DNA of 64,000 bases, taken from positions 4,352 to 68,351 of the forward strand of contig JBBIOM010000004.1 of the NCBI GenBank assembly GCA_037443365.1. Reading direction: 5' to 3'. This DNA is from Armatimonadota bacterium. Lineage in GTDB: Bacteria > Sysuimicrobiota > Sysuimicrobiia > Sysuimicrobiales > Humicultoraceae. A program made the position numbers and the translations under genes. Positions 1,971 through 56,236 of the stretch are shown one piece after another. Within the stretch, counting starts at the first letter, position 1. Each line of letters begins with the position of its first letter. Under the pieces are notes generated by a model that was given only the letters and a program-made list of their open reading frames with translations, ran no database searches and was not told the origin of the DNA.

Positions 1971-2029
1971 CTTGCTGGCCGGCGGCGCTCCCTGATACCA
2001 TCAAGCCAAGAGGAGCGCGCGGTGAAGCC

Positions 2030-3106
2030 ATGAGCAGGATAGCCGTCGCCATGAGCGGCGGGGTGGACAGCGCGGTGGCCGCGGCCCTGCTCACCGAGCA
2101 GGGCTGCGACGTCATCGGGCTCACGATGATGCTGGGGCCGCAGTGCTCGCCCGAAGGTGACGGGAACACCCGGTCGTGCTGCGGCATGCGCGCGATCGAG
2201 GACGCGCACATAGCGGCCCGGCGGCTAGGCATCCGCCACCACGTGCTGGACCTGCGCGAGGAGTTCGATCGCGAGGTCGTCGGCCGCTTCTGCGATGAGT
2301 ACGCTCGGGGCCGCACGCCCAATCCCTGCATCACGTGCAACCAGGCGATCAAGTTCCGCGCTCTGCTGGAGCGGGCGGAGGCGCTGGGTTGCGAGGCCCT
2401 GGCCACCGGGCACTACGCCCGGATCGCCCCCGACGGCCGCAGCGGCAGGCTGGTGCTGCTGCGCGCCGCAGACCGCCGGAAGGACCAGTCGTACGTGCTC
2501 TATTCGCTGACGCAGGGGCTGTTGGCGCGTCTGCGCTTCCCGGTGGGCGGGTATCTCAAGGAGGAGATCCGGGCCATCGCGCGCCGAAGGAGGCTGACCG
2601 TTGCCGACAAGCCCGACAGCCAGGAGATCTGCTTCGCTCCCAGGGGACGCCACGCCGATCTCGTGGCCGAGCGGCGGCCCGAGGCATTCCTTCCCGGGCC
2701 GATCCTGGATCTTGCCGGCAGGGTGGTCGGCACTCACGCCGGGATCGCCCGATACACGGTCGGGCAGCGCCGCGGGCTAGGGCTGGCGATGGGTGTAGCG
2801 CGGTACGTGCTCGAGGTTGACGCGCGGGGCAACGCGCTCGTAATAGGAGGTCCGGAAGGGCTGCGGCGAAGTCGTCTCGAGATGGACCGGGTGAACTGGA
2901 TCGCCCCGACGCCGCTTCCGGCTGCCGCGACGGTGCGCGTGCGGTACGGGGCGCCCGATGTCCCTGCGATGCTGCACGCCCGTGGTCCTGATGGTGTGCT
3001 GGTGGAGTTCCACGAGCCCCAGCGCGCGGCTGCGCCCGGTCAGGCCGCCGCCTTCTACGACGGCGACCGCGTGCTGGGCGGGGGAATCATAGAAAGCCTA
3101 TCCTGA
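2030..3106 (+). CDS. mnmA: tRNA 2-thiouridine(34) synthase MnmA
   Basis: PP-loop VAMSGGVDSAVAA, a CCG motif, and KDQSYVL. ATG 2030 was chosen inside the longer track ORF 1316..3106, whose upstream part overlaps rarA. Confidence 0.9.
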   Translation: MSRIAVAMSGGVDSAVAAALLTEQGCDVIGLTMMLGPQCSPEGDGNTRSCCGMRAIEDAHIAARRLGIRHHVLDLREEFDREVVGRFCDEYARGRTPNPCITCNQAIKFRALLERAEALGCEALATGHYARIAPDGRSGRLVLLRAADRRKDQSYVLYSLTQGLLARLRFPVGGYLKEEIRAIARRRRLTVADKPDSQEICFAPRGRHADLVAERRPEAFLPGPILDLAGRVVGTHAGIARYTVGQRRGLGLAMGVARYVLEVDARGNALVIGGPEGLRRSRLEMDRVNWIAPTPLPAAATVRVRYGAPDVPAMLHARGPDGVLVEFHEPQRAAAPGQAAAFYDGDRVLGGGIIESLS

Positions 3107-3128
3107 TCTGGAAGGGAGATGAGCGGCA

Positions 3129-3458
3129 ATGGGACACCGAAACGACTTTGTGGCCGGGTTCATCGTGGGCGGTCTGCTGGGCACGGCAGTGGCGTTGCTG
3201 CTGGCGCCTCGCTCGGGGGAGGAGACACGCACCCGCCTGGCAGGGTCTGCGGAAGACCTGGGCGAGCGTGCGCGCGATCGCGCAGAAGAGGTCATCAAGA
3301 GACTGCGCGTCACCGCCGAGGACCTCTCGCAGCGCGGGCGGGTGAAGCTGGACGAGGGAGCCTCCAAGATTCGCGAAGCGATGGAGCGTGGTCGTGAGAC
3401 GCTCGAGGAGAAGACCAGAGGGCTCCGCGAGTGCCGCGAGGAAGAGCCGAAAGAGTAG
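3129..3458 (+). CDS. YtxH-like small membrane-anchored protein
   Basis: N-terminal TM segment FVAGFIVGGLLGTAVALLLAPRSGEETR followed by a charged helical tail; this layout is typical of the YtxH family. Confidence 0.55.
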   Translation: MGHRNDFVAGFIVGGLLGTAVALLLAPRSGEETRTRLAGSAEDLGERARDRAEEVIKRLRVTAEDLSQRGRVKLDEGASKIREAMERGRETLEEKTRGLRECREEEPKE

Positions 3459-4752
3459 CACGCTGACGCTGGCGATCCCGCAGCACCTGAGGCCCGGCCT
3501 TGAGATCGTCAGGCGGTTGCGCGAGGCCGGGTGGGAGACATACCTGGTCGGCGGGGTTGTGCGGGACCTGCTCCTTGGCCGTCCGGCCGCCGACCTGGAC
3601 ATCGCCACGGCCGCGTCCCCCCAACAGGTGGCCGCGTTGTTCGACCGGGCGGTGCCGGTGGGAATCCAGTTCGGCGTCGTGGCCGTCGTCCTGGGCGGGC
3701 ATCCCTATCAGGTGGCCACCTTCCGCAGGGAGGGCCCGTATCTGGACGGTCGCCGCCCCTCGTTCGTCGAACCCGCCAGCGCGCGGGATGACGTACGCCG
3801 GCGTGACTTCACCGTCAACGCCCTGCTGTGCGACCCATCCAGCGGCGAGATCATTGACCATGTAGGCGGCCGGGCCGATCTCGCCAGGCGGCGCATTCGC
3901 ACGGTCGGCCCACCGTCCGAGCGCTTCGCCGAGGACCGGCTACGGCTGCTGCGCGCGGTGCGGCTGGCCGCCGAGCTGGAGTTCACCTTGGATCCACGCA
4001 CTCGCGCGGCGATCGCGGGCCTCGCATCCACAATCACCGGGGTCAGCGCGGAGAGGATCCGCGACGAGCTGATACGGCTGCTGGTCGCGCCGGGCTCCAC
4101 CGAGGGCGTTCGCACGATGGCGTCAACAGGACTCCTGAGAGCCATCCTGCCCGAGGTGGCGGCCCTCTCGTCAGTGCCTGCCCCACATGCCGACGGCCCC
4201 GCCGCCGACGCGCTCGAGCACGCCTGCCGGATGCTGCGATTCCTGAGGCCGCCGGCGCCTGAGACGGCCCTTGCCGCTCTGCTCTGCCGCCTGCCCGAGG
4301 CCACCGCGCAGGAGATCTGCCGTCGCCTGCGCCTGAGCACGGCCTCGCGCCGCAGGGTCGCGGCGCTTGTCCGCGAGTTCCCCCGGTTCGGGGCGCATGC
4401 CCGCGCATCCCGGCCGGATGCCCGCCGCCTGCGGCGCCTGGGGATAGCAGGGAGTCTGCTCGCGCTGCTCCGGGCGGACCAGGAGGCCGCAGGCAGAGAC
4501 CCCGCCGCCTGCCTGCGCGCCCTGGGGCCGTTGGCCGCCAGCATCGAGGACGCCCCGGGACCGGACCATCTGGTGAGCGGCGACGACCTGATTGCCATGG
4601 GCTATGCTCCGGGTCCGGCGTTTGCCGTGATGCTGCGCGCGGTCGACGAGGCGTGGGTCCGCGGTGAGGTCGCGAACGCGGAGGCGGCGCGCGGGTGGGT
4701 ACGCGACCGCTTCCCGGCAGGTGCGACCAGCCCGCCCGTGGAACCGACATGA
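3388..4752 (+). CDS. cca: tRNA nucleotidyltransferase (CCA-adding enzyme / poly(A) polymerase family)
   Basis: Motifs LVGGVVRDLLLGRPAADLDIAT, RDFTVNAL and RLLRAVR. The start is uncertain: GTG 3388 overlaps the YtxH gene by 71 nt, and I saw no ATG/GTG/TTG between that gene's stop and the conserved helix. Confidence 0.75.
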   Translation: MVVRRSRRRPEGSASAARKSRKSSTLTLAIPQHLRPGLEIVRRLREAGWETYLVGGVVRDLLLGRPAADLDIATAASPQQVAALFDRAVPVGIQFGVVAVVLGGHPYQVATFRREGPYLDGRRPSFVEPASARDDVRRRDFTVNALLCDPSSGEIIDHVGGRADLARRRIRTVGPPSERFAEDRLRLLRAVRLAAELEFTLDPRTRAAIAGLASTITGVSAERIRDELIRLLVAPGSTEGVRTMASTGLLRAILPEVAALSSVPAPHADGPAADALEHACRMLRFLRPPAPETALAALLCRLPEATAQEICRRLRLSTASRRRVAALVREFPRFGAHARASRPDARRLRRLGIAGSLLALLRADQEAAGRDPAACLRALGPLAASIEDAPGPDHLVSGDDLIAMGYAPGPAFAVMLRAVDEAWVRGEVANAEAARGWVRDRFPAGATSPPVEPT

Positions 4753-4786
4753 GCGACCGAGCAGACCCGATTGGACGGAGGCCGGC

Positions 4787-4933
4787 ATGACAGAACGTGC
4801 TGCGTTGTACGCTGTGCTCTGGGCTCTGGGCGTCATGGTCGTGATCGGCGCGCTGCTTCCCCTCATCTGGCCCGGGCTGATCCGCTTCGTCAATCGAAGC
4901 GTGCTGAATGAGGACGGCGCCGCGGACAGCTGA
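4787..4933 (+). CDS. hypothetical small membrane protein (48 aa)
   Basis: ATG 4787 follows GGACGGAGG. One hydrophobic helix, LYAVLWALGVMVVIGALLPLIWPGL. Third codon positions are G/C-rich. Confidence 0.3.
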   Translation: MTERAALYAVLWALGVMVVIGALLPLIWPGLIRFVNRSVLNEDGAADS

Positions 4934-4981
4934 GCACGCTCCCCGCGGATTCGCCGCGCGCCTGCCAATACAAGGATATGC

Positions 4982-5869
4982 ATGCGGCCGGGTCGAACAG
5001 CCCGGAGAGCACCGGAGCCGGCGGCGCGAGGCGGAATGGTGCGGAGGAAGCCGGTGGGAGACGGGGCGCTGATCCTGGGGCTTGTCAACCAGAAGGGCGG
5101 GTGCGGCAAGACCACCACCGCCGTCAATCTGAGCGCCTCGCTGGCCGCTGAAGGTCATCGGTGCCTCCTGATAGACCTGGACCCGCAGGCGAACGCCACG
5201 GTGAGCCTCGGGATGGATCCCGCCACGCTGCGGCAGACGATCTACCACGTGCTTCTGGACCCGGACCACGCGGAGGGCGTGCCGCTGGATGCCGTCGTGC
5301 TGCCTTCGCCCGTGCGGGGTCTTGATATCGCTCCGTCCTCGATCGACCTCGCTGCCGCCGAGCTGGAACTGGCAGCACGCATCGGACGCGAGCACGCGTT
5401 GCGCAGGCGTTTGGCACCGGCGCGCGACCGCTACGATTTCGTTCTCATCGACACGCCGCCGTCGCTAGGTTTGCTCACACTGAACGCGCTGGTCGCCTGC
5501 GACGCGATCATCATCCCGATCCAGACCCACTACTACGCGTTGCTAGGGATGCGGCAGCTGATACGCACCCTCAAGGTGGTGGGCAGCGAGGTTGGCCACC
5601 AGGTCGAGATCCTGGGGGTGCTGCCGACCATGTACGACTCGCGCACAACGATCAGCAAGGAGATCCTGGAAGGCATCCACGACTTCTTCCCAAACAAGGT
5701 GTTTGAGACCACGATCCACTTCAACATCAAGCTCGTGGAGTCGTCGATGTCGGGCGTGCCGCTCTTCGTGAGCAACCCCTCATCGCGCGGCGCCAGGGAG
5801 TACTCGAGCCTGGCCAGAGAGGTGATCGCACATGTCAGGCGGTCGCGAAGAGCTGAGGCGCGGCGTTAG
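4982..5869 (+). CDS. ParA/Soj-family P-loop ATPase (orphan; no ParB nearby)
   Basis: Deviant Walker A NQKGGCGKTTTAVNL, then LIDLDPQANAT and VLIDTPPSLG. ATG 4982 has AAGGA 5 nt upstream; an alternative start is ATG 5036. The long form has an Arg-rich N-terminal extension. Confidence 0.8.
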   Translation: MRPGRTARRAPEPAARGGMVRRKPVGDGALILGLVNQKGGCGKTTTAVNLSASLAAEGHRCLLIDLDPQANATVSLGMDPATLRQTIYHVLLDPDHAEGVPLDAVVLPSPVRGLDIAPSSIDLAAAELELAARIGREHALRRRLAPARDRYDFVLIDTPPSLGLLTLNALVACDAIIIPIQTHYYALLGMRQLIRTLKVVGSEVGHQVEILGVLPTMYDSRTTISKEILEGIHDFFPNKVFETTIHFNIKLVESSMSGVPLFVSNPSSRGAREYSSLAREVIAHVRRSRRAEARR

Positions 5870-6236
5870 GAACGTCATTGAGGCGGCCTCGCGCGAGATG
5901 GGCGCCCTGAGCGATCAGCAGCGCTCCGGGGCCGGCCTGCCCGAGAGTCCGCCCGAAGGGCGCGCGGAGCGTCCGTTCCTGCGGCTGGTGCGCGAGCGCC
6001 AGGCGCCCCCCGCTCCCTTGGCGCCCAGGCCGGTCGCGGTCCAGGGGCCCGTAGCGGTGCATCCTGCGAGGGGCGTCTGCGCCGACTACCAGGACCACCA
6101 GGCCTGCTGGGAAGTTCCGGAGGCCTACTGCAACCAGGCGCTGCACGTGTGCATGCTGCGCGAGTGTCCGGTCTACGACCTGAACAGGGGCGTGCTCGAG
6201 AAGCGATTCGCCGCGAAGTTCGCGCACCTCTGGTGA
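5832..6236 (+). CDS. hypothetical protein with a low-complexity N-terminal half and a Cys-rich C-terminal module
   Basis: Third codon positions are G/C-rich in this frame. The C-terminus is GVCADYQDHQACWEVPEAYCNQALHVCMLRECPVY (5 Cys). It overlaps the parA-like gene's 3' end by 38 nt; an alternative start is ATG 5898. Confidence 0.5.
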   Translation: MSGGREELRRGVRNVIEAASREMGALSDQQRSGAGLPESPPEGRAERPFLRLVRERQAPPAPLAPRPVAVQGPVAVHPARGVCADYQDHQACWEVPEAYCNQALHVCMLRECPVYDLNRGVLEKRFAAKFAHLW

Positions 6237-13639: not shown

Positions 13640-14582
13640 TTCCGCCGGCCGCGCGCTGATCGTCTGCCACCCTGACCCGGACGGCGACTGCCTGGGGGCG
13701 GCCCTTGCGCTCCACGCCGCCCTGGAGCAGATCGGGGTGGAAGCGACGGTCGCCTGCGAGGACGGCGTGCCCGGCTCGCTGGCGTTCCTGCCGGGTGCCG
13801 GACGGGTGGTCCGCGCGGTCCCTGCTGACGTTCCGATTCCCGTCGCGGCGGCGCTGGAGTGCGATACACCCGAGCGGGCCGGCTCGCTGGCAGCCGCCCT
13901 GAGGCGCGCCAGGACGCTCATCGCGATCGACCATCACGGCGAGCGTCCCATCGGTGCCCATCTGGCATACTGGGATCCCGCGGCCGCCGCGGTCGGCGAG
14001 ATGGTCATGGATCTGATAACCGAGCTTGGGGTGACGATTGATCGGCCGATGGCCGCGTGCCTGCTCGCTGCCATTGTGACCGACACGGGCGTCTTCAGGT
14101 ACGCCAACACGACGCCGCGCACCCTCCGGATTGCCGCAGAACTGATCGAGCGCGGCGCCAGCCTGAGCGAGATCGTGCGCGCAGCCTACGAGGAGCAACC
14201 CGCCCCCACGGTGCGCTTGCTCGGGCACGCGCTGGCTGCCAGCCGGCTGCACGAGGACGGGGCGGTGGCGATGACCACGGTGACGCCGGCGATGCTGGCG
14301 GCCGCCGGCGCCGGAGCGGATGACATCGAGGGCATCGCCGAGGCGCTTCGCACGATATCCGGGGTGCGCTTGGCCGTGATGGTGCACGACCGCGGGGACT
14401 CGGTCCGGGTCTCGATCCGGGCGAGAGACGGGGTGCGCGCCGATCGGATGGCCCGGGAGCTGGGGGGTGGCGGACACCCTGGCGCCGCAGGGGCCCAGAT
14501 GGGAAGCGGGCTCGATGAGGCGATGCCGCGCGTCCTTCGGGCCGCCTCGCGCGCGGTCCGTTCGGCAGGCCATGGCGCGTAA
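13605..14582 (+). CDS. nrnA: DHH/DHHA1 phosphoesterase (NrnA-like oligoribonuclease / pAp phosphatase)
   Basis: HPDPDGDCLG, AIDHH and GGGGHPGAAG motifs. GTG 13605 follows GGAGGGA. Confidence 0.75.
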   Translation: MDPRETIARALSSAGRALIVCHPDPDGDCLGAALALHAALEQIGVEATVACEDGVPGSLAFLPGAGRVVRAVPADVPIPVAAALECDTPERAGSLAAALRRARTLIAIDHHGERPIGAHLAYWDPAAAAVGEMVMDLITELGVTIDRPMAACLLAAIVTDTGVFRYANTTPRTLRIAAELIERGASLSEIVRAAYEEQPAPTVRLLGHALAASRLHEDGAVAMTTVTPAMLAAAGAGADDIEGIAEALRTISGVRLAVMVHDRGDSVRVSIRARDGVRADRMARELGGGGHPGAAGAQMGSGLDEAMPRVLRAASRAVRSAGHGA

Positions 14583-44364: not shown

Positions 44365-45762
44365 ATGCCCGAGGAGGGTCCGCCCCTGCGCCTCCTGCCC
44401 TCAGTGGACCGAGTGGTGGAGGAGTTGCGCCGGCGGGGTCTGCTCGATGCGTTCTCACGCAGGGCGGCCACGCTGGCGGTCCAGCATGCGGTGGACGAGG
44501 CGCGCCGCGCGCTACGTGAGGGAGGAGGCGGCGTGGAGCACGAAGCCATCGCGGATCGCGCCGCGGCAGTGCTGCGGCGGCAGTTCGGCGGCGGTCCCAG
44601 GCGCGTCATCAACGCGAGCGGCATCATACTGCACACAAACCTCGGACGCGCTCCCCTCTCCGTGGCGGCGCAGGCGGCGCTGGGTGAAGTCTCGTCCGGC
44701 TACTGCGCCCTGGAGATCGACCTGGAGAGCGGGGAGCGCGGCAGCCGCGCCGCGCACGTCGAGCCGCTGCTGACCGCCCTGACCGGGGCCGAGGCCGGCT
44801 TCGCGGTGAACAACGCCGCAGCCGCGGTCGTGCTTGCCCTGGCGGCCCTGGCCACCGGACGCGAGGTGCTGGTCGGGCGCGGCGAGCTCGTTGAGATCGG
44901 AGGCGGATTCCGGCTGCCCGACGTCATGCGCGCAAGCGGCGCCCGCCTCGTGGAGGTGGGAACGACCAACCGTACGTACCTGTCGGACTACGCGAGGGCA
45001 CTGGGCGAACAGACGGGCATGTTGCTGAAGGTGCATCGGAGCAACTTCTCCCAGAGCGGGTTCGTGCAGGATGTCGCGCTGTCCGAGCTTGTGGAGCTCG
45101 GGCGGAGCCGCGACGTTCCGGTCGTGCATGATCTGGGCAGCGGCTGCCTTGTTGACACGGTGCGCGTGGGACTCCCGGCAGAGCCGATGGTGCAGGCCTC
45201 GGTAGCGCAGGGCGCGGATCTGGTGATCTTCAGCGGCGACAAACTGCTGGGCGGGCCGCAGGCCGGCGTGATCGTGGGGAGGCGCGCCACGACGGACCGC
45301 TGCCGGTCCCATCCGATGGCCAGGGCCGCGCGCCTGGACAAGTTGAACCTGGCAGCGCTTGTGGCCACCCTGCGCGCCCATCTCGACCAGGACCGGGCGT
45401 GGAAGGAGATCCCGATCCTGGCGATGCTGGCGCGCGCCCCCGGGGCGCGCCGCGCTCTGGCGCGGCGCCTGGCCAGAGGGGTACTGGGGGCCGTGGGAGG
45501 GGCGGCCTCGGTGGATGTCGTGCCCACGCACGGAGAGGTGGGAGGAGGTGCGCTTCCCGGCGCCTCGATTCCGTCCTGGGCCGTCAGGATCTCCCCTGTA
45601 TCTGCGCGGCCCGAGGATTGGGCCGCACGCCTCCGGACGGGATCCGTGCCGGTGCTCGGTTTCATGCGGGAAGGCGCACTGCATCTGGACGTCCTGGCGC
45701 TGCTGCCCGGGGAGGAGCGGCGGATCCCGGCGCTGCTTCGGGCCGCCGCTTTCCCCGACTGA
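44365..45762 (+). CDS. selA: L-seryl-tRNA(Sec) selenium transferase
   Basis: [17 protein letters not shown] and [13 protein letters not shown] (PLP-Lys context); directly upstream of selB. Confidence 0.9.
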
Positions 45763-47681
45763 TGCATCCGGTCACAATCGGCACCGCAGGGCACATAGAC
45801 CACGGCAAGAGCGCGCTGGTGCGGGCGCTGACCGGCACCGACCCCGACCGCCTGGCCGAGGAGCAACGGCGCGGAATGACCCTTGATCTGGGCTTCGCGC
45901 ACCTGGACCTGCCTGGGGGCCGGCGCGTGGGCATAGTGGATGTGCCAGGACACGAAGCGCTCGTGCACAACATGCTGGCCGGGGCCGGAGGCATAGATCT
46001 GGTCATGCTCGTGGTGGCCGCCGACGAAGGCGCGATGCCACAGACACGGGAGCATGTGGACATCCTGCGCTTCCTCTGCCCCTGGGGCGGTGTGGTGGTC
46101 ATCAGCAAGATGGACCTTGGGCCTGACCCGGAATGGCTGGCCGCGGTCGAGGAGGACCTTTCCGGGCTTGTGGCTGGGACGGCCCTGGAGGGCGCGCCGC
46201 TCGTGCACGTCTCGGCCAGGACCGGCGACGGGCTGGCAGAGCTGGTGCGCGTGCTCGCACGCCTGGTGGAGCAGGTACCGGAGAGATCGGCCGACGGTCC
46301 GGCACGCATGCCCGTGGATCGCTCCTTCACGATGCAGGGATTTGGCACCGTGGTAACCGGCACGGTATGGAACGGGCGCATCCTGCAAGGGGACACCCTG
46401 GTGCTGCTGCCATCGGGCCGGCAGGCAAGGGTGCGTGGCATCCAGGTCCACGGCGTGGCTGTACCTGAGGCGACGGCGGGCAGCCGGGCCGCGGTCAATC
46501 TGGCCGGAGTCGAGAAGAGCGAGGCCAGGCGGGGCGACGTCCTGGCCACGCCCGGCGCTTTCCGCGTCACCGACCGGCTGGACGTCCGCCTGAGACTCCT
46601 TCCTCACGCGCCCGCGCTGCGGCACGCCGCGCGGCTGCACGTCCACATCGGCGCCGGCGAGACCATCGGACGCGCGGTGCTGGCCGGACGCGGCGCGCTG
46701 GCCCCCGGCGAGGAGGGACTGGCCCAGATCCGCCTGGAGGCCCAGGTGGTCGCCGTGCATGGCGATCGGTTCGTGGTGCGGCGCTACTCGCCCACGAGCA
46801 CCGTCGGGGGCGGGACCGTCCTGAACCCCGCGCCGTCGCGGCGACGCCGCGGTACACCTGCCGCGGCCGAGATGGACGCAGGCGAGAAGGGAGGCGCCGG
46901 GGCGCTCGTCGTGGCCGCGGTTACAGCGCGGGGACGCGCCGGAATGGCTCCCTCTGAGGTCGCGGCCGAATCTGGCGTGACCGAGCCCGTCGCCCGGGCC
47001 GCGCTTGCGAAGGCGGTTGAGGAGGGCGCCGTCCAGGACGTGGGCGCCCGCGTCTACGCGACGTCGGCGGTGCTCGAAACGCGCCGCGCCATAGAGGAAG
47101 CCCTGGGAGCATACCACAGGGCCGAGCCGTGGCGCCGCGGCATGCCGCGCGAGGAGCTCAAGAGGCGGGTACAGGCCGGGCCCCGCGACCCTCTGCTGGA
47201 GGCGGTGCTGGCACAGCTCTTGGGCGCGGGGGGCCTGGTGGAGACCCGAGGCTTGCTGGCGCTGGCAGGGCACACACCGAGGGTGGGGGAGGGCGAAAGG
47301 GCGCTGCGCGAGGCCCTCCTGGCGTTGCTGGAGCGGGCGGGTATCCAACCCCTCCCGGGCGGGGAAATCGAGCGCCTGGGGCCTCCCAGTGCCCTGAACA
47401 GGGCGTTCCAGGCGCTGATCGACGAGGCCCTGGCCGTGCAGATAGCGCCCGACCTGCGGATCGCCGCGCGCGCGGCGGAGCAGGCCCGGCAGGCCGTGCT
47501 CGAGATGCTCCAACAGGGTACGCCAGTGAGTGTGGCGTCGCTACGTGACCGGCTTCAGACCAACAGGAAGTACGCGCTGGCCCTGCTGGAGTACCTGGAT
47601 TCGGCGCGGGTTACGCGCCGCGTGGGCGACCGGCGGATCCCCGGCCCCCTGGCCGAGCAGCCGCTCTGGCCGCCTGGCTAG
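45762..47681 (+). CDS. selB: selenocysteine-specific translation elongation factor SelB
   Basis: [19 protein letters not shown]...[17 protein letters not shown]-Tu-like domains II/III and a long C-terminal winged-helix region. TGATG overlap with selA. The track ORF start 45399 was rejected. Confidence 0.9.
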
Positions 47682-48847
47682 TCGCTGACGCGCACATCGG
47701 TAATGCGGGTCGTGGCCGACCAGGTGGCGAACTCCTGGCAGATGCCGGGCGACAGTTCCACCGTGGCGCGGGCCGAGCCCCCCGCGGGAATCGCTCCGAC
47801 CTTGGCCACACCGGACCGGCTGTCCTGCACGAATCGGGGAGCCGGCAGCACCAGGCGACAGCCGCCCTCTATCTGAACAGCAACCGTGGCGCCTGCCACG
47901 GCAACAGGGCTGCGGTTCGTGACCACGACCACGAACCCCGCGGCAGCGCCCAGCCACTGCACTTGAGCCTCGAGCTGCTTGCCGACTATCTGCGCGAACT
48001 GCGCCATCCCCTTGATCTCACCGGCGTGCTCGGCCAGGGCACCGGTGATCTGCCCGATCGGCCGGATGACGACGGTGTAGCGACGGACGACCTCGCCCAC
48101 CTGCAGGCGAACCTCGAAGCCCGATGTCCTCCCGCGCGGCACGGGATTGGGGTAGACGGGAGCCGTTCCCTCTGCCACACGGCGCCCGGCTTCGCCAAAC
48201 GCCCGCACCTCAGCGTAGACGGACATCGCCGGGCCCTGGTTCTCCACTGTGCCTGCGACGATCAGCGTGGCATCCTCTACGCGCGCGGACGATGCCCGGA
48301 TACTCCACGCGGCAGGCTGCGCCGTGGGCGCAGCGGTGGGCGCCCCTGGCTGTGGGCGGGGCGCTGGCACTTCGACGCGCAGGCCTGTCTCTGCCCTGAA
48401 GACCTCCACCGTCTCGGCCTTCTCACGACGCACCAGGAAGGCCACACCGGCGAAGGGGTAGGAGAGAAGGTCTCCGTCCGGGGTCGCCGTGACGACGCTC
48501 GCGGACGCGCCCGCATAAGCGCTCCGAACCGCGGCGAGGGTGGAGCCAGGTCCGATGCCGCGCGCCGTGCGGCACGCCGGCGTGCGCGTGCTGATGCGCT
48601 CGACGAACCCGTAGTCGGTCACCATCTGTGCCCAGGGCTCGCGCAGGGCGTAGACCACGCGCGTTCCCGACTCCACCGCGCGCAGGGGCGTGCCCGTGGT
48701 GGCAATGGCCGCGGCCACACCCATCCCGAGCCGCACCCCGGCGATGCCGGCACCTTCCGCGATCACGCACTCGGCCGGACCTCCAGCGGACCAGCGACCC
48801 GGCGCCGCCAGCACCAGCGCGACTGCAAGAACCCACGCTCTGCGCAT
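47678..48847 (-). CDS. hypothetical exported protein (signal peptide, two-part architecture with a Pro-rich linker)
   Basis: Signal peptide MRRAWVLAVALVLAAPG. The C-terminal half has two beta-rich repeats (TLIVAGTVENQGPAMSVYAEV... and FVVVVTNRSPVAVAGATVAV...). I recognise no family. Confidence 0.5.
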   Translation of the reverse strand: MRRAWVLAVALVLAAPGRWSAGGPAECVIAEGAGIAGVRLGMGVAAAIATTGTPLRAVESGTRVVYALREPWAQMVTDYGFVERISTRTPACRTARGIGPGSTLAAVRSAYAGASASVVTATPDGDLLSYPFAGVAFLVRREKAETVEVFRAETGLRVEVPAPRPQPGAPTAAPTAQPAAWSIRASSARVEDATLIVAGTVENQGPAMSVYAEVRAFGEAGRRVAEGTAPVYPNPVPRGRTSGFEVRLQVGEVVRRYTVVIRPIGQITGALAEHAGEIKGMAQFAQIVGKQLEAQVQWLGAAAGFVVVVTNRSPVAVAGATVAVQIEGGCRLVLPAPRFVQDSRSGVAKVGAIPAGGSARATVELSPGICQEFATWSATTRITDVRVSD

Positions 48848-48937
48848 CCGCACGGCAATCACCACCTGGATACTACGACGCAACGCCCAAAGTCCCTCCA
48901 CCGGCCGTGATGCTGCGTGATCGAGAACCCGGCCTTC

Positions 48938-48966
48938 TTGCCGATCGCGCAGGGCGCGCTTACAAT
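48938..48966 (+). promoter_or_regulatory. candidate promoter for tRNA-Sec
   Basis: TTGCCG (48938-48943), a 17-nt spacer, then TACAAT (48961-48966). The -10 hexamer ends 24 nt before the tRNA 5' end. Confidence 0.5.
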
Positions 48967-48990
48967 CTAGCTGCGGCCCGAAGGCCGCGC

Positions 48991-49085
48991 GGAGGGCATT
49001 GTTCGCTGGTGCGGGCCCCGGTCTTCAAAACCGGTCGCTGGGCTTGACGGTCCAGGCTGGGTTCGATTCCCAGGGCCCTCCGCCA
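48991..49085 (+). tRNA. selC: tRNA-Sec (anticodon UCA), 95 nt with encoded CCA
   Basis: Hand fold. Acceptor GGAGGGC pairs with GCCCTCC, with discriminator G and CCA. D-stem of 6 bp, GTTCGC/GCGGGC, with a 4-nt loop TGGT. Anticodon stem CCGGT/ACCGG with loop CTTCAAA. Long variable arm of about 22 nt. T-arm TGGG-TTCGATT-CCCA. The 6-bp D-stem with a tetraloop and the long variable arm are tRNA-Sec hallmarks. Confidence 0.9.
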
Positions 49086-49551: not shown

Positions 49552-50652
49552 GTGATGGGACCCGCAGACGCCGGCCGCCAGCAGCCCGGCCCGCCCCTGG
49601 CGCAGCCTGCGGCGACGCACGCCCGCAGAAACCCGATCCGGCGCCTGGCCCGGGCGCCGCTGCTGCTCAAGATCCTGGTGGCCAACGCCGGCATCGTGGT
49701 GCTGGGCGCCGTGGCCGGGACAGCGATCTCGCTCCGCCACGGTGCCGTCCATCCCGGCGCCCCGCACTACGACCTTATGATCCTCTTTGGGACAGCCGGC
49801 GTGGCGGTGAGCGTGGCCGTCAACTTCCTGGTGCTGCGGGCCGTGTTGAGGCCACTGGATCACCTGCAGCGGGCCGTGGACGCGGTGGCCGAGGGGGAGC
49901 GCGGCGTGCGCGTGGCACGCTACGGCCTCTCCGATGACCGCCTCGACCACCTGGCCGACACCTTTGACCGCATGATCGCGGCGCTGGAGGAGCAGGCCGA
50001 GCGGCTGCGGCTGTTGCCCGGGCAGATCCTCCGGGCGCAGGAGGAGGAGCGGCGCCGGGTGGCGCGCGAACTGCACGACGAGGCCGCCCAGTCGCTCACA
50101 TCGCTGCTGGTGCGCCTGCGGCTGCTGGAGCAGGCCCAGGCGCCGGAGGCGGCGCAGCAGCGGGTCGCCGAGCTGCGCCGGCTCACAGCGCGGGCCCTCG
50201 ACGACGTGCGGCGGATCGCCCTGGAGATGCGGCCCTCGGTTCTCGACGACCTGGGGCTGGCTGATGCGCTCCACGCGCACGTCGACGGCCTCAACGCGTC
50301 TGGCAGTACGCGGATCAGCCTGCTGACCGAGGGCCTCGGCGTCCGCCTGGAACCCGGGGTGGAGTTGGCCCTCTACCGGGTGGCCCAGGAGGCACTGACC
50401 AACGCCAGGCGGCACGCCCGGGCGTCGGCGGCACGGGTGCGGATCCACCGGGAGGGGTCCGACGTCGTCCTGGAGGTGGAGGATGACGGCGCCGGCTTCG
50501 ACCCGCATCAGGCCTCCTCCAGAGGGAGCGGGCTAGGCCTGGCCGGCATGCGCGAGCGCATGGGTCTGATTGGCGGGACGCTGACGATCAGGTCAGCCCC
50601 AGGGCAGGGGACCACGGTGGTGGCGCGGGTCAGCCTGAGGGAGCGGAGGTAG
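49552..50652 (+). CDS. sensor histidine kinase (HAMP, HisKA_3 and HATPase domains; NarX/DegS class)
   Basis: Two TM helices with a very short external loop, HAMP (LRPLDHLQRAVDAV), H-box RVARELHDEAAQSL, N-box EALTNARRHA, and the G motifs DDGAGF and GLGLAGMRER. Confidence 0.8.
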   Translation: MMGPADAGRQQPGPPLAQPAATHARRNPIRRLARAPLLLKILVANAGIVVLGAVAGTAISLRHGAVHPGAPHYDLMILFGTAGVAVSVAVNFLVLRAVLRPLDHLQRAVDAVAEGERGVRVARYGLSDDRLDHLADTFDRMIAALEEQAERLRLLPGQILRAQEEERRRVARELHDEAAQSLTSLLVRLRLLEQAQAPEAAQQRVAELRRLTARALDDVRRIALEMRPSVLDDLGLADALHAHVDGLNASGSTRISLLTEGLGVRLEPGVELALYRVAQEALTNARRHARASAARVRIHREGSDVVLEVEDDGAGFDPHQASSRGSGLGLAGMRERMGLIGGTLTIRSAPGQGTTVVARVSLRERR

Positions 50653-50657
50653 CCGGG

Positions 50658-51320
50658 ATGTCGGGGCCCATCCGCGTTCTGCTTGCCGATGACCACCCTG
50701 TTCTCCGTACCGGGCTGCGCACGTTGCTGGAGCAGGAACCCGACATGGCCGTTGTGGGTGAGGCCTCCGACGGGCACGAGGCGGTCGCTCTGGCGCAGCG
50801 GCTGCGCCCCGACGTGATCGTAATGGACATTAGCATGCCCGGGCTGGACGGCCTTGAGGCCACGCGCCGGATACGCGCCCTCGGCCTGTCCTCCCCCGTC
50901 TTGATCCTGACGGTGCACGCCCAGGAGCGGTACCTGTTTCCGGTGCTCAAGGCCGGAGCCGCGGGCTACCTGAACAAGACCGCGGCGGACATGGAACTCG
51001 TGGCCGCGGCGCGCACCGTAGCCGGCGGTGGGGCGTTCCTGCACCCGGGCGCCACGCGCATGCTGCTCGAGGACTTCGTGACCCGCGTGCACACGGGCGC
51101 GGAGAAGGACAGCTTCGACCGGCTCAGCGAGCGAGAGCGCGAGGTCCTGAGGATGGTGGCCTCGGGTTACACTTCACGCGAGATCGCCGACCATCTCAGC
51201 CTGAGCCCAAAGAGCGTGGAGACGTATCGCGCCCGCATCATGGAGAAACTGGAGCTGTCGACCCGCGCCGAGCTAGTGCGCTACGCCCTGCGGCGCGGCC
51301 TGCTGACAGGAGACGTGTAG
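50658..51320 (+). CDS. NarL/FixJ-family response regulator (REC plus LuxR-type HTH)
   Basis: VLLADDHPVLR, VIVMDISMPGLDG, LSEREREVLRMVASGYTSREIADHLSLSPKSVETY. Confidence 0.9.
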   Translation: MSGPIRVLLADDHPVLRTGLRTLLEQEPDMAVVGEASDGHEAVALAQRLRPDVIVMDISMPGLDGLEATRRIRALGLSSPVLILTVHAQERYLFPVLKAGAAGYLNKTAADMELVAAARTVAGGGAFLHPGATRMLLEDFVTRVHTGAEKDSFDRLSEREREVLRMVASGYTSREIADHLSLSPKSVETYRARIMEKLELSTRAELVRYALRRGLLTGDV

Positions 51321-51434: not shown

Positions 51435-51896
51435 GTGATGGATCCGATGGCCTTCTTCCTGCTTGTGGCCGAGTGCGACGCCGATTTCCGCGAGACGCTG
51501 CGGGAGATGACCGGCGCAGTGCGAGCCGCCCTTCCGATTGATCTTGAGGTCCAGGAAGCCACTTCGGCGAGTGAGACTCGCGTCACGCTCCAGGAACGGC
51601 GTCCCGATGCGCTGCTCCTGGACTGGAATGTGACGGCCGAGGGGACCGTGCCCTTCGTTCAAGAACTCCAGGGCCTCGCCCCCGGCATACGCATCATGGT
51701 GATGCTGCCCGAGGCGGCCGGGGAGTACCGGAGGGCCGTCTGGGCGGCAGGCGCCTGCGCGGGCATGCCGCGCGACCGCCTTGACGCCGAGTGCCTGGCC
51801 ACGGCCATCTGCATCATGCAGCGCGCCAAGATGCGCGAGACGGCGCTGCGCTCCCGCGTGAGGGAACTCTGCCCGGCTACGGCCGAAGTGCTGTGA
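51435..51896 (+). CDS. stand-alone atypical receiver-like (REC) domain protein
   Basis: FFLLVAECDADFRE...PDALLLDWNV...IRIMVMLPE...AAGACAGMPRD. An Asp sits at the phospho-acceptor position, but the conserved Thr/Ser and the Lys of the K-P motif appear to be substituted. The stop overlaps the start of the oxidoreductase gene (TGATG). Confidence 0.5.
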   Translation: MMDPMAFFLLVAECDADFRETLREMTGAVRAALPIDLEVQEATSASETRVTLQERRPDALLLDWNVTAEGTVPFVQELQGLAPGIRIMVMLPEAAGEYRRAVWAAGACAGMPRDRLDAECLATAICIMQRAKMRETALRSRVRELCPATAEVL

Positions 51897-54184
51897 TGAG
51901 GGTCTCCCGCAGGGAGTTCATGGTACTCGGCACCGGTGCCGCGGGTGCGCTGGCGGCGGCCTCTGCGCCCAGCCTGCTGCGCCGGTTCTTGCCGCCTCGC
52001 CGACGCTTCTGGTACCAGAACGCCACGACCGCCATCCCGACCGTGTGCGAGATGTGCCTGTGGCGGTGCGGCGCCATCGCACACGTTGCCGACGGCCGCG
52101 TGTGGAAGATTGACGGGCATCCCGACAACCCCAAGTCCAATGGTCGGCTGTGTGCGAGGGGCTTGGGAGGCCTGGGCGAGCTCTACGATCCCGACCGGCT
52201 CAAGAAGCCCCTGATCCGCACCGGGAAGCGGGGCGAGGGGACGTTTCGAGAGGCGTCCTGGGACGAGGCGCTCGACCTGTCGGCCAAGGCGCTGCTGGAG
52301 ATCAAGGAGCAGTACGGTCCCGAGGCCGTCGCCTTCTTCGGGCACTATGCCGGGGACAAATGGTTCGTGGACTACCTGGCGCCAGCCTGGGGGTCTCCCA
52401 ACGCCGGCAAACCCTCCGTAGCCCTGTGCACCACGCCCCGAGAGGTCGCGAGCAACCTGACCTTCGGCAGGCCGATTGGTGGCCACGAGCCGGTGGACTG
52501 GGACGATGTCCGCTACCTCGTGCTTTTCGGCACCCATATCGGCGAGAACGCCCACAACACCATGATGCAGCAGTTCGCCGCAGCCCGGGCCCGGGGCGCC
52601 AAGGTCGCTGTCGTGGATCCTCGCTTCTCCACGGTGGCCTCTAAGGCCGACCGGTACCTGCCGATCAAGCCCGGCACCGACACCGCGCTGCTGCTTGCCT
52701 GGATGCACTGGCTCATCGCCCGCGGCCACTACGACGCTGATTACATAGCGCGGTACGCCGAGGGCTTCGACAAACTTGCCGAGCACGTGAAGCCCTTCAC
52801 GCCGGAGTGGGCCGCGAAGATCACCGATCTACCGGTCGAGCAGGTCGTGGAGGTCGCGAAGGACCTCTGCCGCTATCGGCCGCAGGCGGTCCTGGTGCCC
52901 GGCCGGCACGTGGTGTGGTACGGCAACGACACCCAGCGGATGCGGGCGCTGTACCTGGTCAACATCCTGCTGGGCAACTACGGCCGGCGCGGCGGGTTCT
53001 ACATCGCGGAGTCGCCGTACATCGAGGACTACCCGCTGCCGCCGTTTCCTATCGGATCCGAAGCGGGCGGCTGAGCAGGTCCTGCGCCCTCCGGTCCGGA
53101 GGGCCCCTCAGATCGGAAGCCGCGCGCCGACGGGCAGGGAGCGCGGTTCCTGCGGGGCGGCGTCGCCATCCAGGAACTGGTCGAGCCCATGGTCTCGGGC
53201 CAGCCGTACCCGATCAAGGGCCTGGTGAGCTACGCCGTCAACCTGTTCCACACCCTTCCGAATCCGGCACGCACACGCGAGGCCCTGGAGCGGCTCGACT
53301 TCCACCTGGCCATAGACATCCTGCCGCAGGAGCACACGCGCTGGGCCGACGTCGTGCTCCCCGAGTGCACCTATCTCGAGCGCTACGACGACCTCATCAC
53401 CGTGGCCCACAAGCGGCCCTTCATCGCGCTGCGGCAGCCTGTCGTTCAGCCCATGCACGACACCAAGCCGGGCTGGTGGATCGCCCGCGAACTGGGGCTC
53501 CGCCTGGGGCTGGAGCAGTACTTCCCCTGGAAGACGATCGAGGAGTACCTGGAGCAGCGCCTCAACTCGGTGGGCCTCACGCTGGAGGAGATGAAGCAGA
53601 AGGGCGTCAGCATCCAGAAGGGCCGGCCGTACCTGGAGGACTGGGAGGGGAGAGGGACGCCCTTCAAGATGACCGGGGGCAAGATCGTGATCTACTGCGA
53701 AGAACTCGCGAAGGCTGGGCACGATCCGCTGCCCCGCTACGAGCCGACCCCCGAGCCCCCAGAAGGGTACTTCCGGCTCATCTATGGCCGCGCGCCCGTC
53801 CACACTTTCGCGCGCACGCAGAACAACCCGGTGCTCGCCCGGCTGATGGCCGATAACGAGGTCTGGATCAATCGCGAGGCGGCCGCCGATCTCGGCCTCG
53901 CCGACGGTGATCGCGTCATGCTGGTCAACCAGGATGGCGCCAGGAGCGGGCCGGTCAGGGTGCGGGCCACCTCGCGCATCCGCAGGGACTGCGTCTACAT
54001 GGTGCACGGTTTCGGCCACAACGCCCCTGGGATGCGCCGGGCCCACGGTCGAGGGGCCAGCGATACGGCACTGCAAACCCGTTATGCCATCGACCCGATC
54101 AGCGGTGGAGCCGGGTTGCGAGTCAACTTCGTCCGGCTGGAGCGGGGCAGCCGCACATCGCACCGCGCGGCCGGGAGGGCGTAG
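51896..54184 (+). CDS. Tat-exported PsrA/PhsA-type molybdopterin oxidoreductase catalytic subunit, predicted selenoprotein (UGA = Sec at codon 393)
   Basis: Twin-arginine signal MRVSRREFMVLGTGAAG and Fe-S motif CEMCLWRCG...C. A Cys in SVALCTTPRE (codon 178) sits at the expected Mo-ligand position. Track ORFs 51791..53074 and 53189..54184 share a frame and are joined by one TGA (53072-53074), with no other stop between them. Family-like sequence (GVAIQELVEPMVSGQPYPIKGL) begins upstream of the second ORF's ATG, and that ATG has no Shine-Dalgarno sequence. C-terminal motif ADVVLPECTYLERYD. Confidence 0.8.
53071..53111 (+). promoter_or_regulatory. SECIS-like RNA structure immediately 3' of the in-frame UGA
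   Basis: An 11-nt spacer follows the UGA. GCCCUCC(G) at 53086-53093 pairs with (C)GGAGGGC at 53097-53104, giving 7-8 bp and a loop GGUCC/GUC that contains GU. A minor hairpin GCAG-GUC-CUGC lies at 53075-53085. The outer helix CUGAG (53071-53075) / CUCAG (53107-53111) includes the UGA. Third-position GC content drops locally. Confidence 0.6.
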
Positions 54185-54187
54185 GCG

Positions 54188-54760
54188 ATGGCGCGCTTTG
54201 GGATGGCGGTGGACCTCGATCGGTGCGTCGGTTGTCAGGCCTGCGCGGTAGCCTGCGCTGTGGAGAACGAGGTTCCCGAGGGCTTCGCGCGCCGGAGGGT
54301 AGGCGAGGTGGTCGCCGGTTGGGACCTCGACGACCTGCGTCTCCAGTTCCTGCACATGCAGTGCTACCACTGCGCCAACCCCCCCTGCATCCTGGTCTGC
54401 CCCACCGGCGCGACCTACATCAACCGCGACGGCCTCTGCCTTGTGGACTACAACATCTGCATCGGCTGCCGGGCATGCGTCTCCGCCTGTCCCTACGGGA
54501 TGCGCTACCCGCATCCGCGCGGCTTCGTGGACAAGTGCTCCATGTGTGACCACCGGATCCACAGCGACCGTCATCCGGCCTGCGTCGAAGCGTGCCCCGC
54601 AGGAGCACTGGTCTTCGGTGACCTCGACGACCCGAACAGCGCCATCAGCCAGGCCGCCGCCGCGGCAAGCCGCGTCGAGGCAGACCGCCCAGAGACCGGC
54701 GCCCGGCCCAAGTTCCTCTTCCTCAACGCCCGGGTCAGTCCGCAGGAGGTGCGTCGGTGA
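54188..54760 (+). CDS. 4Fe-4S ferredoxin-type electron-transfer subunit (PsrB/PhsB-like)
   Basis: Four Cys groups: CVGCQACAVAC, CYHCANPPCILVCP, CIGCRACVSACP and CSMCDHR...CVEACP. Confidence 0.85.
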   Translation: MARFGMAVDLDRCVGCQACAVACAVENEVPEGFARRRVGEVVAGWDLDDLRLQFLHMQCYHCANPPCILVCPTGATYINRDGLCLVDYNICIGCRACVSACPYGMRYPHPRGFVDKCSMCDHRIHSDRHPACVEACPAGALVFGDLDDPNSAISQAAAAASRVEADRPETGARPKFLFLNARVSPQEVRR

Positions 54761-55683
54761 TCGAACTTCGCGACTCGGTCCTCAACACAACACTCCATCT
54801 GTGGGGCTGGGAGGTGGCGGTCTACCTGTTCCTGGGCGGCCTGGCAGCCGGGCTGCTGATCTTCGCCTCATCGGCGCACCTGGCCGGCCGTCGGCGGGAG
54901 TACTACCCAGCGGTCCGCGCGGCGACGCTGTGGACCCCGCCGATCATCCTGGTCGGCTTGGTCTCCCTCTGGCTCGACCTGGGCAGCAAGTGGAACCCGT
55001 TCTGGTTGTACCTGACCTTCCGGCCGTTGAGCCCGATGTCGTGGGGCGCCTGGATCCTGATCGCGGTGCTGCTCACCTCCTCGCTGGCCTCGGTCCCGGC
55101 GATCGCCGCACGAGGGGCATGGCCATGGCATCGGTCGAGAACAGCCCTAGACCGCCTCGCGCGATGGGTGGGGCCGCGCGTGCGCACGCTCTCTTGGTGG
55201 AATCTTGGCATGGGCGTGGCCCTGGGGGTCTATACCGGCGTCCTCCTCGGGACCATGGTCGCGCGCCCGGCGCTCAACAGCCCGCTGCTCGGCCCGCTGT
55301 TTCTGGTCTCCGGAGCATCTACCGCCGGGGCCCTGATCGTGATCCTCATCCCCGGCGGGCCGTGGGGTCGCCTGCTGACCCGTGCCGAGGTGGCAGTGAA
55401 ACTGATCAAGTTCTCGATGCTCGGGCTGTATCTGGTTGGCCTGGCGACCTCCACCGCCTATGCACAGGCCGCCGCCGCCACGCTGGTAGCCGGTGCCTGG
55501 GCCTGGGTATTCTGGCCGGTCGTCGTGGTGGCAGGCGTGCTGGCGCCTCTGGGGATCGCGCTGGCTGAGATCGTCACACACCGTGTCAGCCGCGCCCTGG
55601 CACTGCTATCCAGTTCGATGGTCCTGGCAGGCGGGCTGGCTCTCAGGATCGTGCTGGTGTACGCCGGACAGCGCGGATTCTGA
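54757..55683 (+). CDS. NrfD/PsrC-type integral membrane quinol-interacting subunit
   Basis: About 8 predicted TM helices, N-terminal WGWEVAVYLFLGGLAAG motif, GTGA overlap with the ferredoxin subunit gene. Confidence 0.75.
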   Translation: MIELRDSVLNTTLHLWGWEVAVYLFLGGLAAGLLIFASSAHLAGRRREYYPAVRAATLWTPPIILVGLVSLWLDLGSKWNPFWLYLTFRPLSPMSWGAWILIAVLLTSSLASVPAIAARGAWPWHRSRTALDRLARWVGPRVRTLSWWNLGMGVALGVYTGVLLGTMVARPALNSPLLGPLFLVSGASTAGALIVILIPGGPWGRLLTRAEVAVKLIKFSMLGLYLVGLATSTAYAQAAAATLVAGAWAWVFWPVVVVAGVLAPLGIALAEIVTHRVSRALALLSSSMVLAGGLALRIVLVYAGQRGF

Positions 55684-55786
55684 ACCGCGAAGGGAGGGAG
55701 ACAGACTACTACCCGCATCCAGTTCGTCACGTGAAGGCCGCTCGTGAACGAGCCCGACAACAACCATGCTTCAGGGAGGGAGTTTG

Positions 55787-56236
55787 ATGAAGAGAGCACA
55801 CCTGGTCATTCTCGGCCTGGCCATCGCCATGGTCGTGGCAGCGCCGGCCGTCAGCAGGGAGTGGATCGAGCGGCCGTTCGTGACAGCCGCCGAGCGGATG
55901 CTGGCGACAATGCCGGCCGACTTCTTCCAGATGGATCCGACGGCTGTCCAGCGGCTGATGGAGACCGCTCAGCCGCTGATCCTCGACGTGCGTGAGAAAG
56001 CGGAGTGGGACGCCGAGCGCATCGCCGGCTCGGTGCACGTGCCGATCCGCGAGTTGGCCAAGTTCATTGACAGGCTGCCCGACAGCAGGGGTGCACCGAT
56101 CGTGGCCGTGTGCAAGATCGGCTACCGCGGCGGGATCGCCATGACGATGCTGCGCATGTGGGGGTACACCAACGTGCGCGCGATGCGCGGCGGGCTCGAC
56201 GCCTGGAAGGCCGCCGGGCTGCCCGTGACCAAGTAG
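55787..56236 (+). CDS. exported single-domain rhodanese (sulfurtransferase)
   Basis: Signal peptide MKRAHLVILGLAIAMVVAAPAVS, active-site loop CKIGYR (C-x4-R), and a LDVRE motif. ATG 55787 follows GGGAGGGAG. Confidence 0.75.
   Translation: MKRAHLVILGLAIAMVVAAPAVSREWIERPFVTAAERMLATMPADFFQMDPTAVQRLMETAQPLILDVREKAEWDAERIAGSVHVPIRELAKFIDRLPDSRGAPIVAVCKIGYRGGIAMTMLRMWGYTNVRAMRGGLDAWKAAGLPVTK

Follow-up and report, generated by a model that had tools for sequence, protein, structure and literature searches.

A predicted selenocysteine away from the molybdenum ligand in a PsrA-type chalcogen reductase of an Armatimonadota bacterium

Selenocysteine (Sec) is known in the molybdenum- or tungsten-dependent bis(pyranopterin guanine dinucleotide) (Mo/W-bisPGD) enzyme superfamily from the formate dehydrogenases FdhH, FdnG and FdhA and from the formylmethanofuran dehydrogenase FwdB. 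In these enzymes Sec is the ligand of Mo or W, located in a UHxP motif at about residues 140-200, and is encoded by UGA together with a downstream Sec insertion sequence (SECIS) and SelB. Among the Mo/W-bisPGD enzymes, FdhA and FwdB are the only entries in a 2026 review of 119 prokaryotic selenoprotein families and subfamilies, and Wells et al. 2020 (PMC7331816) found no homolog in the dimethyl sulfoxide reductase family that carries Sec off the ligand position. Here we describe a psrA gene in a stretch of 64,000 nt from an Armatimonadota bacterium (contig JBBIOM010000004.1, positions 4,352 to 68,351; the whole stretch is referred to as the window). Like the genes of the Sec formate dehydrogenases, it belongs to the Mo/W-bisPGD superfamily and combines an in-frame UGA with a downstream SECIS-like hairpin and SelB; in contrast to them, the ligand position is taken by Cys178 and the predicted Sec is situated in a loop.

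The polysulfide reductase PsrABC of Thermus thermophilus (2VPW/2VPX/2VPY/2VPZ) shares with our locus a twin-arginine translocation (Tat) signal, the iron-sulfur motif FS0, a Cys as Mo ligand, the partner subunits PsrB and PsrC, and a loop with the residues AGGC. The joined window protein is 62% identical to Thermus PsrA (2VPW_A) over residues 4-753 (1098 bits), and its UGA is aligned with Cys388 of that enzyme (position counted from the alignment). No published role for Cys388 was found in the literature searched, which did not cover the 2008 structure paper (10.1038/nsmb.1434). Enterobacterial PhsA is alike in domain architecture and operon type, and both halves of the window protein match the NCBIfam PhsA profile, but the identity is only ~34% and the loop insertion with the Cys or Sec is absent from PhsA. 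The elements of psrA on which the following sections depend are:

51896..54184, + strand: psrA, full-length catalytic subunit including the predicted Sec393, with Tat signal SRREFM (translation, alignment with 2VPW_A, Pfam and NCBIfam)
52046..52153, + strand: [4Fe-4S] motif FS0, C51-x2-C54-x3-C58-x27-C86 (translation; all four Cys are kept in homologs)
52427..52429, + strand: TGC codon of Cys178, the Mo-ligand position (aligned with Cys173 of 2VPW_A)
53036..53146, + strand: clade-specific loop insertion PPFP...AGG-U-...K-P-RADG, which bears the predicted Sec (comparison with loop-less relatives)
53072..53074, + strand: UGA codon 393, predicted to be read as Sec (Cys column in homologs and TGA in 15 orthologous loci)
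53086..53104, + strand: candidate SECIS hairpin, 7-bp stem GCCCUCC/GGAGGGC with apical loop GGUCC (covariation, bacterial SECIS constraints, covariance model)

Read from the Tat-signal ATG (51896) through the closing TAG (54182-54184), psrA has 762 codons, and TGA codon 393 is its sole internal stop. A preliminary description of the window had proposed that the two open reading frames (ORFs) on either side of this TGA form a single gene, and profile matches on both halves agree with that view. The N-terminal part (392 aa) contains the Pfam domains Molybdop_Fe4S4 and Molybdopterin, and the C-terminal part the remainder of Molybdopterin followed by Molydop_binding. On the NCBIfam PhsA profile, the N half covers positions 1-366 and the C half matches from position 411 onwards; the scores of the two halves (317.5 and 206.6 bits, sum 524) are below the cut-off of 694 bits set for the PhsA equivalog NF012032. 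The hallmarks of the PsrA type, namely Tat signal, FS0 motif and a Cys as Mo ligand, are all present. The product is very probably a full-length, Tat-exported Mo-bisPGD catalytic subunit, with a predicted mass of ~83 kDa, of a PsrABC-type polysulfide/thiosulfate (chalcogen) reductase. Polysulfide and thiosulfate are putative physiological substrates, because members of the PsrA/PhsA/SrrA lineage do not reveal their substrate at the sequence level.

The ligand motif of the window protein is LCTTPRE, in which Cys178 aligns with the Mo ligand Cys173 of 2VPW_A, and Cys occupies this column in all 120 homologs that span it, with one further sequence gapped. The predicted Sec393 follows 215 residues further on, which agrees with its earlier placement away from the ligand. 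An attempt to place the Sec residue by alignment to FdhF and NapA was rejected as evidence, the segment being too ambiguous.

If UGA encodes Sec, related proteins are expected to carry Cys or Sec at the same position, and a variable column with neither residue had been named beforehand as a contrary outcome. We aligned the 120 best full-length homologs (56-83% identity to the window protein) using MAFFT and found Cys at the UGA column in 120/120. The column matches the Mo-ligand Cys and the four FS0 Cys in conservation, and the window protein's remaining Cys are in variable columns. No conserved partner Cys was found for this residue, the only other conserved Cys in PsrA being cofactor ligands, which makes an intramolecular structural disulfide unlikely. 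Judged from the alignment, UGA and the lone invariant Cys form a Sec/Cys pair of the classic kind.

We also used the 392-aa N-terminal fragment as query. Its best 120 matches were 57-90% identical. In 114 of these the gene call covers about 391-402 aa, has ...GG as its end and stops exactly one codon short of the invariant Cys. These calls represent clusters at 90% identity, so that at least 114 such clusters exist (among the best 120 matches), and many are interior to contigs of 50-400 kb. They bear the annotation 'molybdopterin-dependent oxidoreductase', as ordinary short proteins. Named sources are metagenome-assembled genomes (MAGs) of Chloroflexi/Chloroflexota, Anaerolineae, Armatimonadota, Methylomirabilis and Anaeromyxobacteraceae. 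At the DNA level, TGA at the equivalent of codon 393 was found in 15 distinct orthologous loci, two from species-representative genomes (L002, L003), eight from metagenomes (L014, L017, L023, L036, L039, L042, L048, L052) and five distinct ones reached via the N-terminal fragments (L086, L087, L089, L090, L092). In an unbiased metagenome sample, 8/49 loop-bearing loci had TGA and the others TGC or TGT.

In a neighbour-joining tree of the N-terminal regions of 109 Sec-type and 113 Cys-type proteins (222 sequences), the Sec and Cys states interleave, and parsimony requires at least eight switches between them. The window's own clade has a majority of Sec forms, with the Cys forms P0001, P0002 and P0004 nested among them. 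Five TGA-bearing genes each contained exactly one in-frame stop in 751-773 codons. When they were compared with the window, the ratio of nonsynonymous to synonymous substitution rates (dN/dS) was 0.10-0.22 in the part before the TGA and 0.09-0.16 in the part behind it; purifying selection is equal on both gene halves.

Bacterial Sec insertion depends on a SECIS directly behind the UGA, for which the published bacterial model (PMC13188914) specifies a stem of 4-16 bp, a loop of 3-9 nt with G in the first two loop positions followed by G or U, a distance of 16-37 nt from UGA to loop, and a minimum free energy of -7.5 kcal/mol or lower. The hairpin in psrA starts 11 nt past the UGA, with its 5' arm at 53086-53092, the loop at 53093-53097 and the 3' arm at 53098-53104. 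Its 7-bp stem, 5-nt loop GGUCC, spacing of 18 nt from UGA to loop and energy of -14.8 kcal/mol agree with all four constraints, and its position and SECIS-like loop were those already noted in the preliminary description.

This hairpin was compared across the window's clade, in seven distinct orthologs with TGA. All seven have a 7-bp stem, capped by a 5-nt loop (GGUCC, GGUAC, GGUGC or AGUUC), that begins exactly 11 nt past the UGA, and the encoded peptide varies (PSGPEG, PPGPGG, ASGTEA, TSGPEV, AAGPEA, LSGAES, TSSVA). Across the orthologs 98% of the stem cells are paired, as opposed to 37-59% after displacing the 3' arm by 1-3 nt. Three of the seven pairs have changed on both sides (pair 2: C-G/G-C/A-U; pair 3: C-G/U-A; pair 5: U-A/C-G/A-U), and the covariation score was 0.449 compared with 0.155 in shuffles, with 0/500 shuffles as high. 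A covariance model built from six orthologs, leaving out the window, gave one significant match when searched on both strands of the 64 kb (53069-53114, 59.2 bits, E = 4e-9); the second-best match (16.9 bits) was the reverse strand of the same hairpin. Both checks, which had been suggested for the region behind the TGA, thus came out in favour of a conserved RNA structure. The mean hairpin energy was also lower in TGA loci (-13.1 kcal/mol) than in TGY loci (-10.1 kcal/mol; Mann-Whitney p = 0.002).

The eight metagenomic TGA loci listed above form a Chloroflexi-like Sec clade with a different hairpin, GGAGGC(A)-loop-(U)GCCUCC, located 17 nt past the UGA (about 17-45 nt). This hairpin is nearly invariant, so that covariation is uninformative here. 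It imposes the peptide EEAGLPP, where Cys-type relatives have EESAELP, and the RNA structure therefore visibly shapes the protein sequence in this clade.

One Cys-type ortholog (L006:7177-7230, Ga0194125_10000004; 84% identical) has TGT at the column and an intact GGCCUCC-GGUCC-GGAGGCC 11 nt past the Cys codon. This hairpin looks like a fossil SECIS, which suggests a recent switch from Sec to Cys.

The components for Sec incorporation are encoded 4-9 kb upstream of psrA on the same strand, as noted previously, and were identified by profile scores above the cut-offs and by two tRNA searches:

44365..45762, + strand: selA, selenocysteine synthase (TIGR00474, 517 bits; cut-off 268)
about 45771..47681, + strand: selB with C-terminal winged-helix SECIS-binding domains (TIGR00475, 337 bits; cut-off 242; Pfam SelB-wing_2 and SelB-wing_3)
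48991..49085, + strand: tRNA-Sec, anticodon TCA (ARAGORN; Rfam RF01852, 70.9 bits)

In the other loci fetched, sel genes were not found next to psr, and the sel-psr adjacency of the window is therefore not a general feature.

A TGA that truly ends translation would leave two polypeptides, a Tat-exported N-terminal one of 392 aa and a separately started C-terminal one of ~331 aa, that assemble afterwards. Gene callers indeed give two ORFs in every TGA locus, and an AGGA is present ~13 nt upstream of the ATG at 53189. However, the break always falls on the codon of the invariant Cys and is followed by the conserved, covarying hairpin, and the 38 codons between the TGA and that ATG are in frame and contain the family-wide motif KPRADG, so the earlier impression that they are family sequence was correct. 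The ATG itself corresponds to an internal Met conserved in unsplit homologs. We consider a split gene very improbable, and slightly more so a nonsense mutation or sequencing error in a TGC or TGT Cys codon of a pseudogene. The recurrence of TGA in 114 protein clusters (among the best 120 matches) and 15 DNA loci from varied samples and lineages effectively refutes this latter explanation, even if TGY is a single base change away from TGA and the TGA locus L002 is also frameshifted; moreover, there are no further stops or frameshifts in the gene, dN/dS is ~0.1 downstream, and the Sec machinery adjoins. Just as improbable is that UGA is translated without selenium, into one of the standard amino acids Cys, Trp or Gly, by reassignment or by hairpin-stimulated near-cognate decoding. 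Structured RNA past a stop codon can promote readthrough, but the hairpin fits the constraints of a SelB-type SECIS and a dedicated selA-selB-tRNA-Sec cluster lies beside the operon. In the window TGA terminates 21/49 coding-like ORFs, selA, psrB and psrC among them, which leaves no room for codon reassignment, and no other same-frame pair of coding-like ORFs split by TGA was found in the 64-kb window.

Several observations weigh against decoding of the UGA as Sec or weaken its evidence. No selD was found in the 64-kb window. The 65-nt fold energy was no better than that of shuffled sequences (z = -0.25) at 69% GC; we therefore dropped stability as evidence, and the hairpin rests on the ortholog comparison. 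Cys-form loci also have stable chance hairpins, and the energy distributions of the two types overlap heavily in this GC-rich DNA. The covariance-model score owes part of its height to coding-sequence homology, and Rfam searched on the window at gathering thresholds reported tRNA-Sec alone and no SECIS family. Finally, the TGA locus L002 (MAG contig CAZGNA010000005) has 1-nt frameshifts in psrA (L002:10330-10345, GGCA-GTTCCGC) and psrC (~13816-13842), which are either assembly errors at 8x coverage or signs of a decaying operon; for this reason we counted L002 as a weak witness for TGA. Taking both sides together, we are highly confident that codon 393 is decoded as Sec. We put the probability at roughly 0.85 that psrA is one gene in which UGA encodes Sec in place of a non-ligand Cys (Cys388 in Thermus) and Mo is ligated by Cys178.

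Sec recoding in a bacterial Mo-bisPGD enzyme is known as such, and what is new is the non-ligand position in a clade-specific loop. A Sec-type PsrA is not among the models of NCBIfam release 20, and no description of such a family was found in the full-text literature searched. Within the limits of that literature, the Sec-type PsrA family appears to be undescribed; the preliminary description likewise knew of no selenoprotein family with this arrangement, and the 2026 catalogue of 119 families does not contain it either.

The loop with the predicted Sec has the form PPFP-xxxx-AGG-[C/U]-(10-25 variable residues)-K-x-RADG, corresponding to an insertion of about 21 residues. Among the relatives compared, it is found only in the PsrA clade of Thermus, Chloroflexi and Armatimonadota, and it is absent from a metagenomic sister clade (~50% identity), from Bacteroidota PsrA-like proteins and from enterobacterial PhsA. 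The Sec/Cys residue is thus confined to the Thermus-type clade and is no general feature of PsrA/PhsA, as might have been assumed at the outset, and it therefore lies outside the core Mo chemistry of the wider family. We inspected the AlphaFold2 model of P0001, the closest Cys form (83% identical), which has a mean predicted local distance difference test score (pLDDT) of 88.8 and matches 2VPW_A with a Foldseek template modelling (TM) score of 0.92-0.94. In this model, pLDDT falls below 50 at residues 396-403, directly after Cys393.

Downstream of psrA the operon continues with three genes:

54188..54760, + strand: psrB, four-cluster ferredoxin subunit (Pfam Fer4_11; NCBIfam TtrB/DsrO/NrfC-like)
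54757..55683, + strand: psrC, NrfD-type membrane anchor (Pfam NrfD, 118 bits)
55766..56236, + strand: exported single-domain rhodanese with signal peptide and active-site CKIGYRG (Pfam Rhodanese, 65 bits)

A rhodanese follows psrC in 31/32 loop-bearing loci with enough downstream DNA, compared with 3/17 loop-less loci (Fisher p = 1.4e-8, a value that ignores kinship among loci); examples are L001, L006, L086, L087, L089, L090 and others. The arrangement resembles the Sud and rhodanese-type polysulfide-sulfur transferases that accompany Psr in Wolinella succinogenes, as the window likewise has an exported single-domain rhodanese with a catalytic Cys. A Cys-persulfide carrier feeding Psr is an established idea. 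The window would differ from the Sud system in that the putative acceptor, the Sec or Cys of the loop, is built into PsrA itself.

A further precedent is MccSep (ExtKL), a multiheme polysulfide reductase of Geobacter sulfurreducens with the same reaction class as the window's PsrA (PMC13510729). In MccSep, a Cys-ligated heme is combined with a mobile, non-ligand Sec that is proposed to attack the chalcogen substrate (PMC13510729), a logic that may be similar in the window's PsrA. Fold and cofactor are unrelated (five c-type hemes instead of Mo-bisPGD) and there is no sequence homology, so that the likeness is mechanistic only.

Our reading of the locus is the following. SelB carrying Sec-tRNA(Sec) would bind the hairpin at 53086-53104, 11 nt downstream of the UGA, codon 393 would be read as Sec, and the resulting full-length PsrA would be exported by Tat. 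The Sec or Cys of the loop may then attack polysulfide, or take over sulfane sulfur from the exported rhodanese of the operon, and, bound covalently to the loop Sec as Se-S(n), the sulfur would be offered to the Mo centre. That this residue is a catalytic nucleophile or sulfur relay is suggested by the lone invariant Cys, the clade-specific loop, the low-confidence segment after the Cys, the rhodanese linkage and the MccSep precedent, and also by the general tendency of Sec to stand in for catalytic redox Cys. Compared with a thiolate, a selenolate is the better nucleophile and the better leaving group (PMC13510729). We regard the relay role as possible, at somewhat less than even odds. Its more specific form, a built-in mobile chalcogen arm that captures polysulfide or the sulfane sulfur of rhodanese and hands it covalently to Mo, is marginally more tentative.

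The points that weigh against a relay are that loop-less PsrA/PhsA enzymes function without the Sec/Cys residue, which is hence not essential to Mo chemistry in general, and that the rhodanese association ignores kinship as stated above. The first of these favours a different function, in which Sec is inserted yet serves neither as nucleophile nor as relay and has a regulatory or protective redox role. For instance, the Sec might reversibly form Se-S with another protein or with the sulfur bound to Mo, might be a switch for protection from oxygen, or might make a structural chalcogen contact. The structure 2VPW_A would fit this as well: it has 734 residues in Foldseek and 765 in the deposited sequence, a difference so small that a disordered loop is hard to accommodate and the position would seem to be fixed. 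On the other hand, a Sec/Cys pair involving a lone invariant Cys is usually the sign of a catalytic redox residue, and both the rhodanese linkage and MccSep favour chalcogen transfer. We therefore consider a purely regulatory or protective role rather unlikely, at lower odds than a nucleophile or relay role of the loop Sec.

Between the sel genes and psrA the window contains two further features:

49552..51320, + strand: two-component system of a HisKA_3 histidine kinase and a LuxR-type response regulator (Pfam, NCBIfam)
51435..51896, + strand: 153-aa ORF with a weak receiver-like match (weak Pfam Response_reg)

The kinase/regulator pair is also present upstream in L001, L003, L006, L086 and L087. 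The TGA stop of the 153-aa ORF overlaps the psrA ATG (TGATG), and the ORF is conserved just upstream of psrA in Sec and Cys loci; it may encode a regulator or chaperone. The gap of 1.3 kb between selB and tRNA-Sec (47682-48990) contains long ORFs (47963-48910 on the + strand and 47678-48901 on the - strand) without Pfam or NCBIfam match. Nearly all confidently coding ORFs of the window are on the + strand, among them nusA, infB, truB, pnp, dapB, asd, ftsK, recX, rny, mutS and mutL, and the sel-psr block sits among these housekeeping genes rather than in an obvious island. The search for relatives also brought up 33 Escherichia records in which phsABC neighbours an IS26 transposase on plasmids of IncF type (L093: E. 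coli plasmid NZ_CP062909, record 1527-6009); this thiosulfate reductase is mobile and has no bearing on the Sec finding.

Our findings point to a large, phylogenetically scattered Sec/Cys family of at least 114 clusters at 90% identity in a respiratory enzyme class where Sec is known only as metal ligand. Hundreds of public psrA gene calls are apparently wrongly split into two ORFs, which affects metabolic inference from MAGs. Sec/Cys pairs reliably point to catalytic redox Cys, and Cys388 of the solved Thermus enzyme is therefore nominated as a functional residue. If the loop residue does act as a chalcogen arm, it would be the first catalytic non-ligand Sec in a Mo/W-bisPGD enzyme, and it would supply a mechanistic step in the Thermus-type polysulfide reductase for which we found no published description since the 2008 structure, the structure paper itself lying outside the literature covered. 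In the communities of hot springs, groundwater and sediments, a Sec-type PsrA would connect the respiration of polysulfide/thiosulfate with how much selenium is available.

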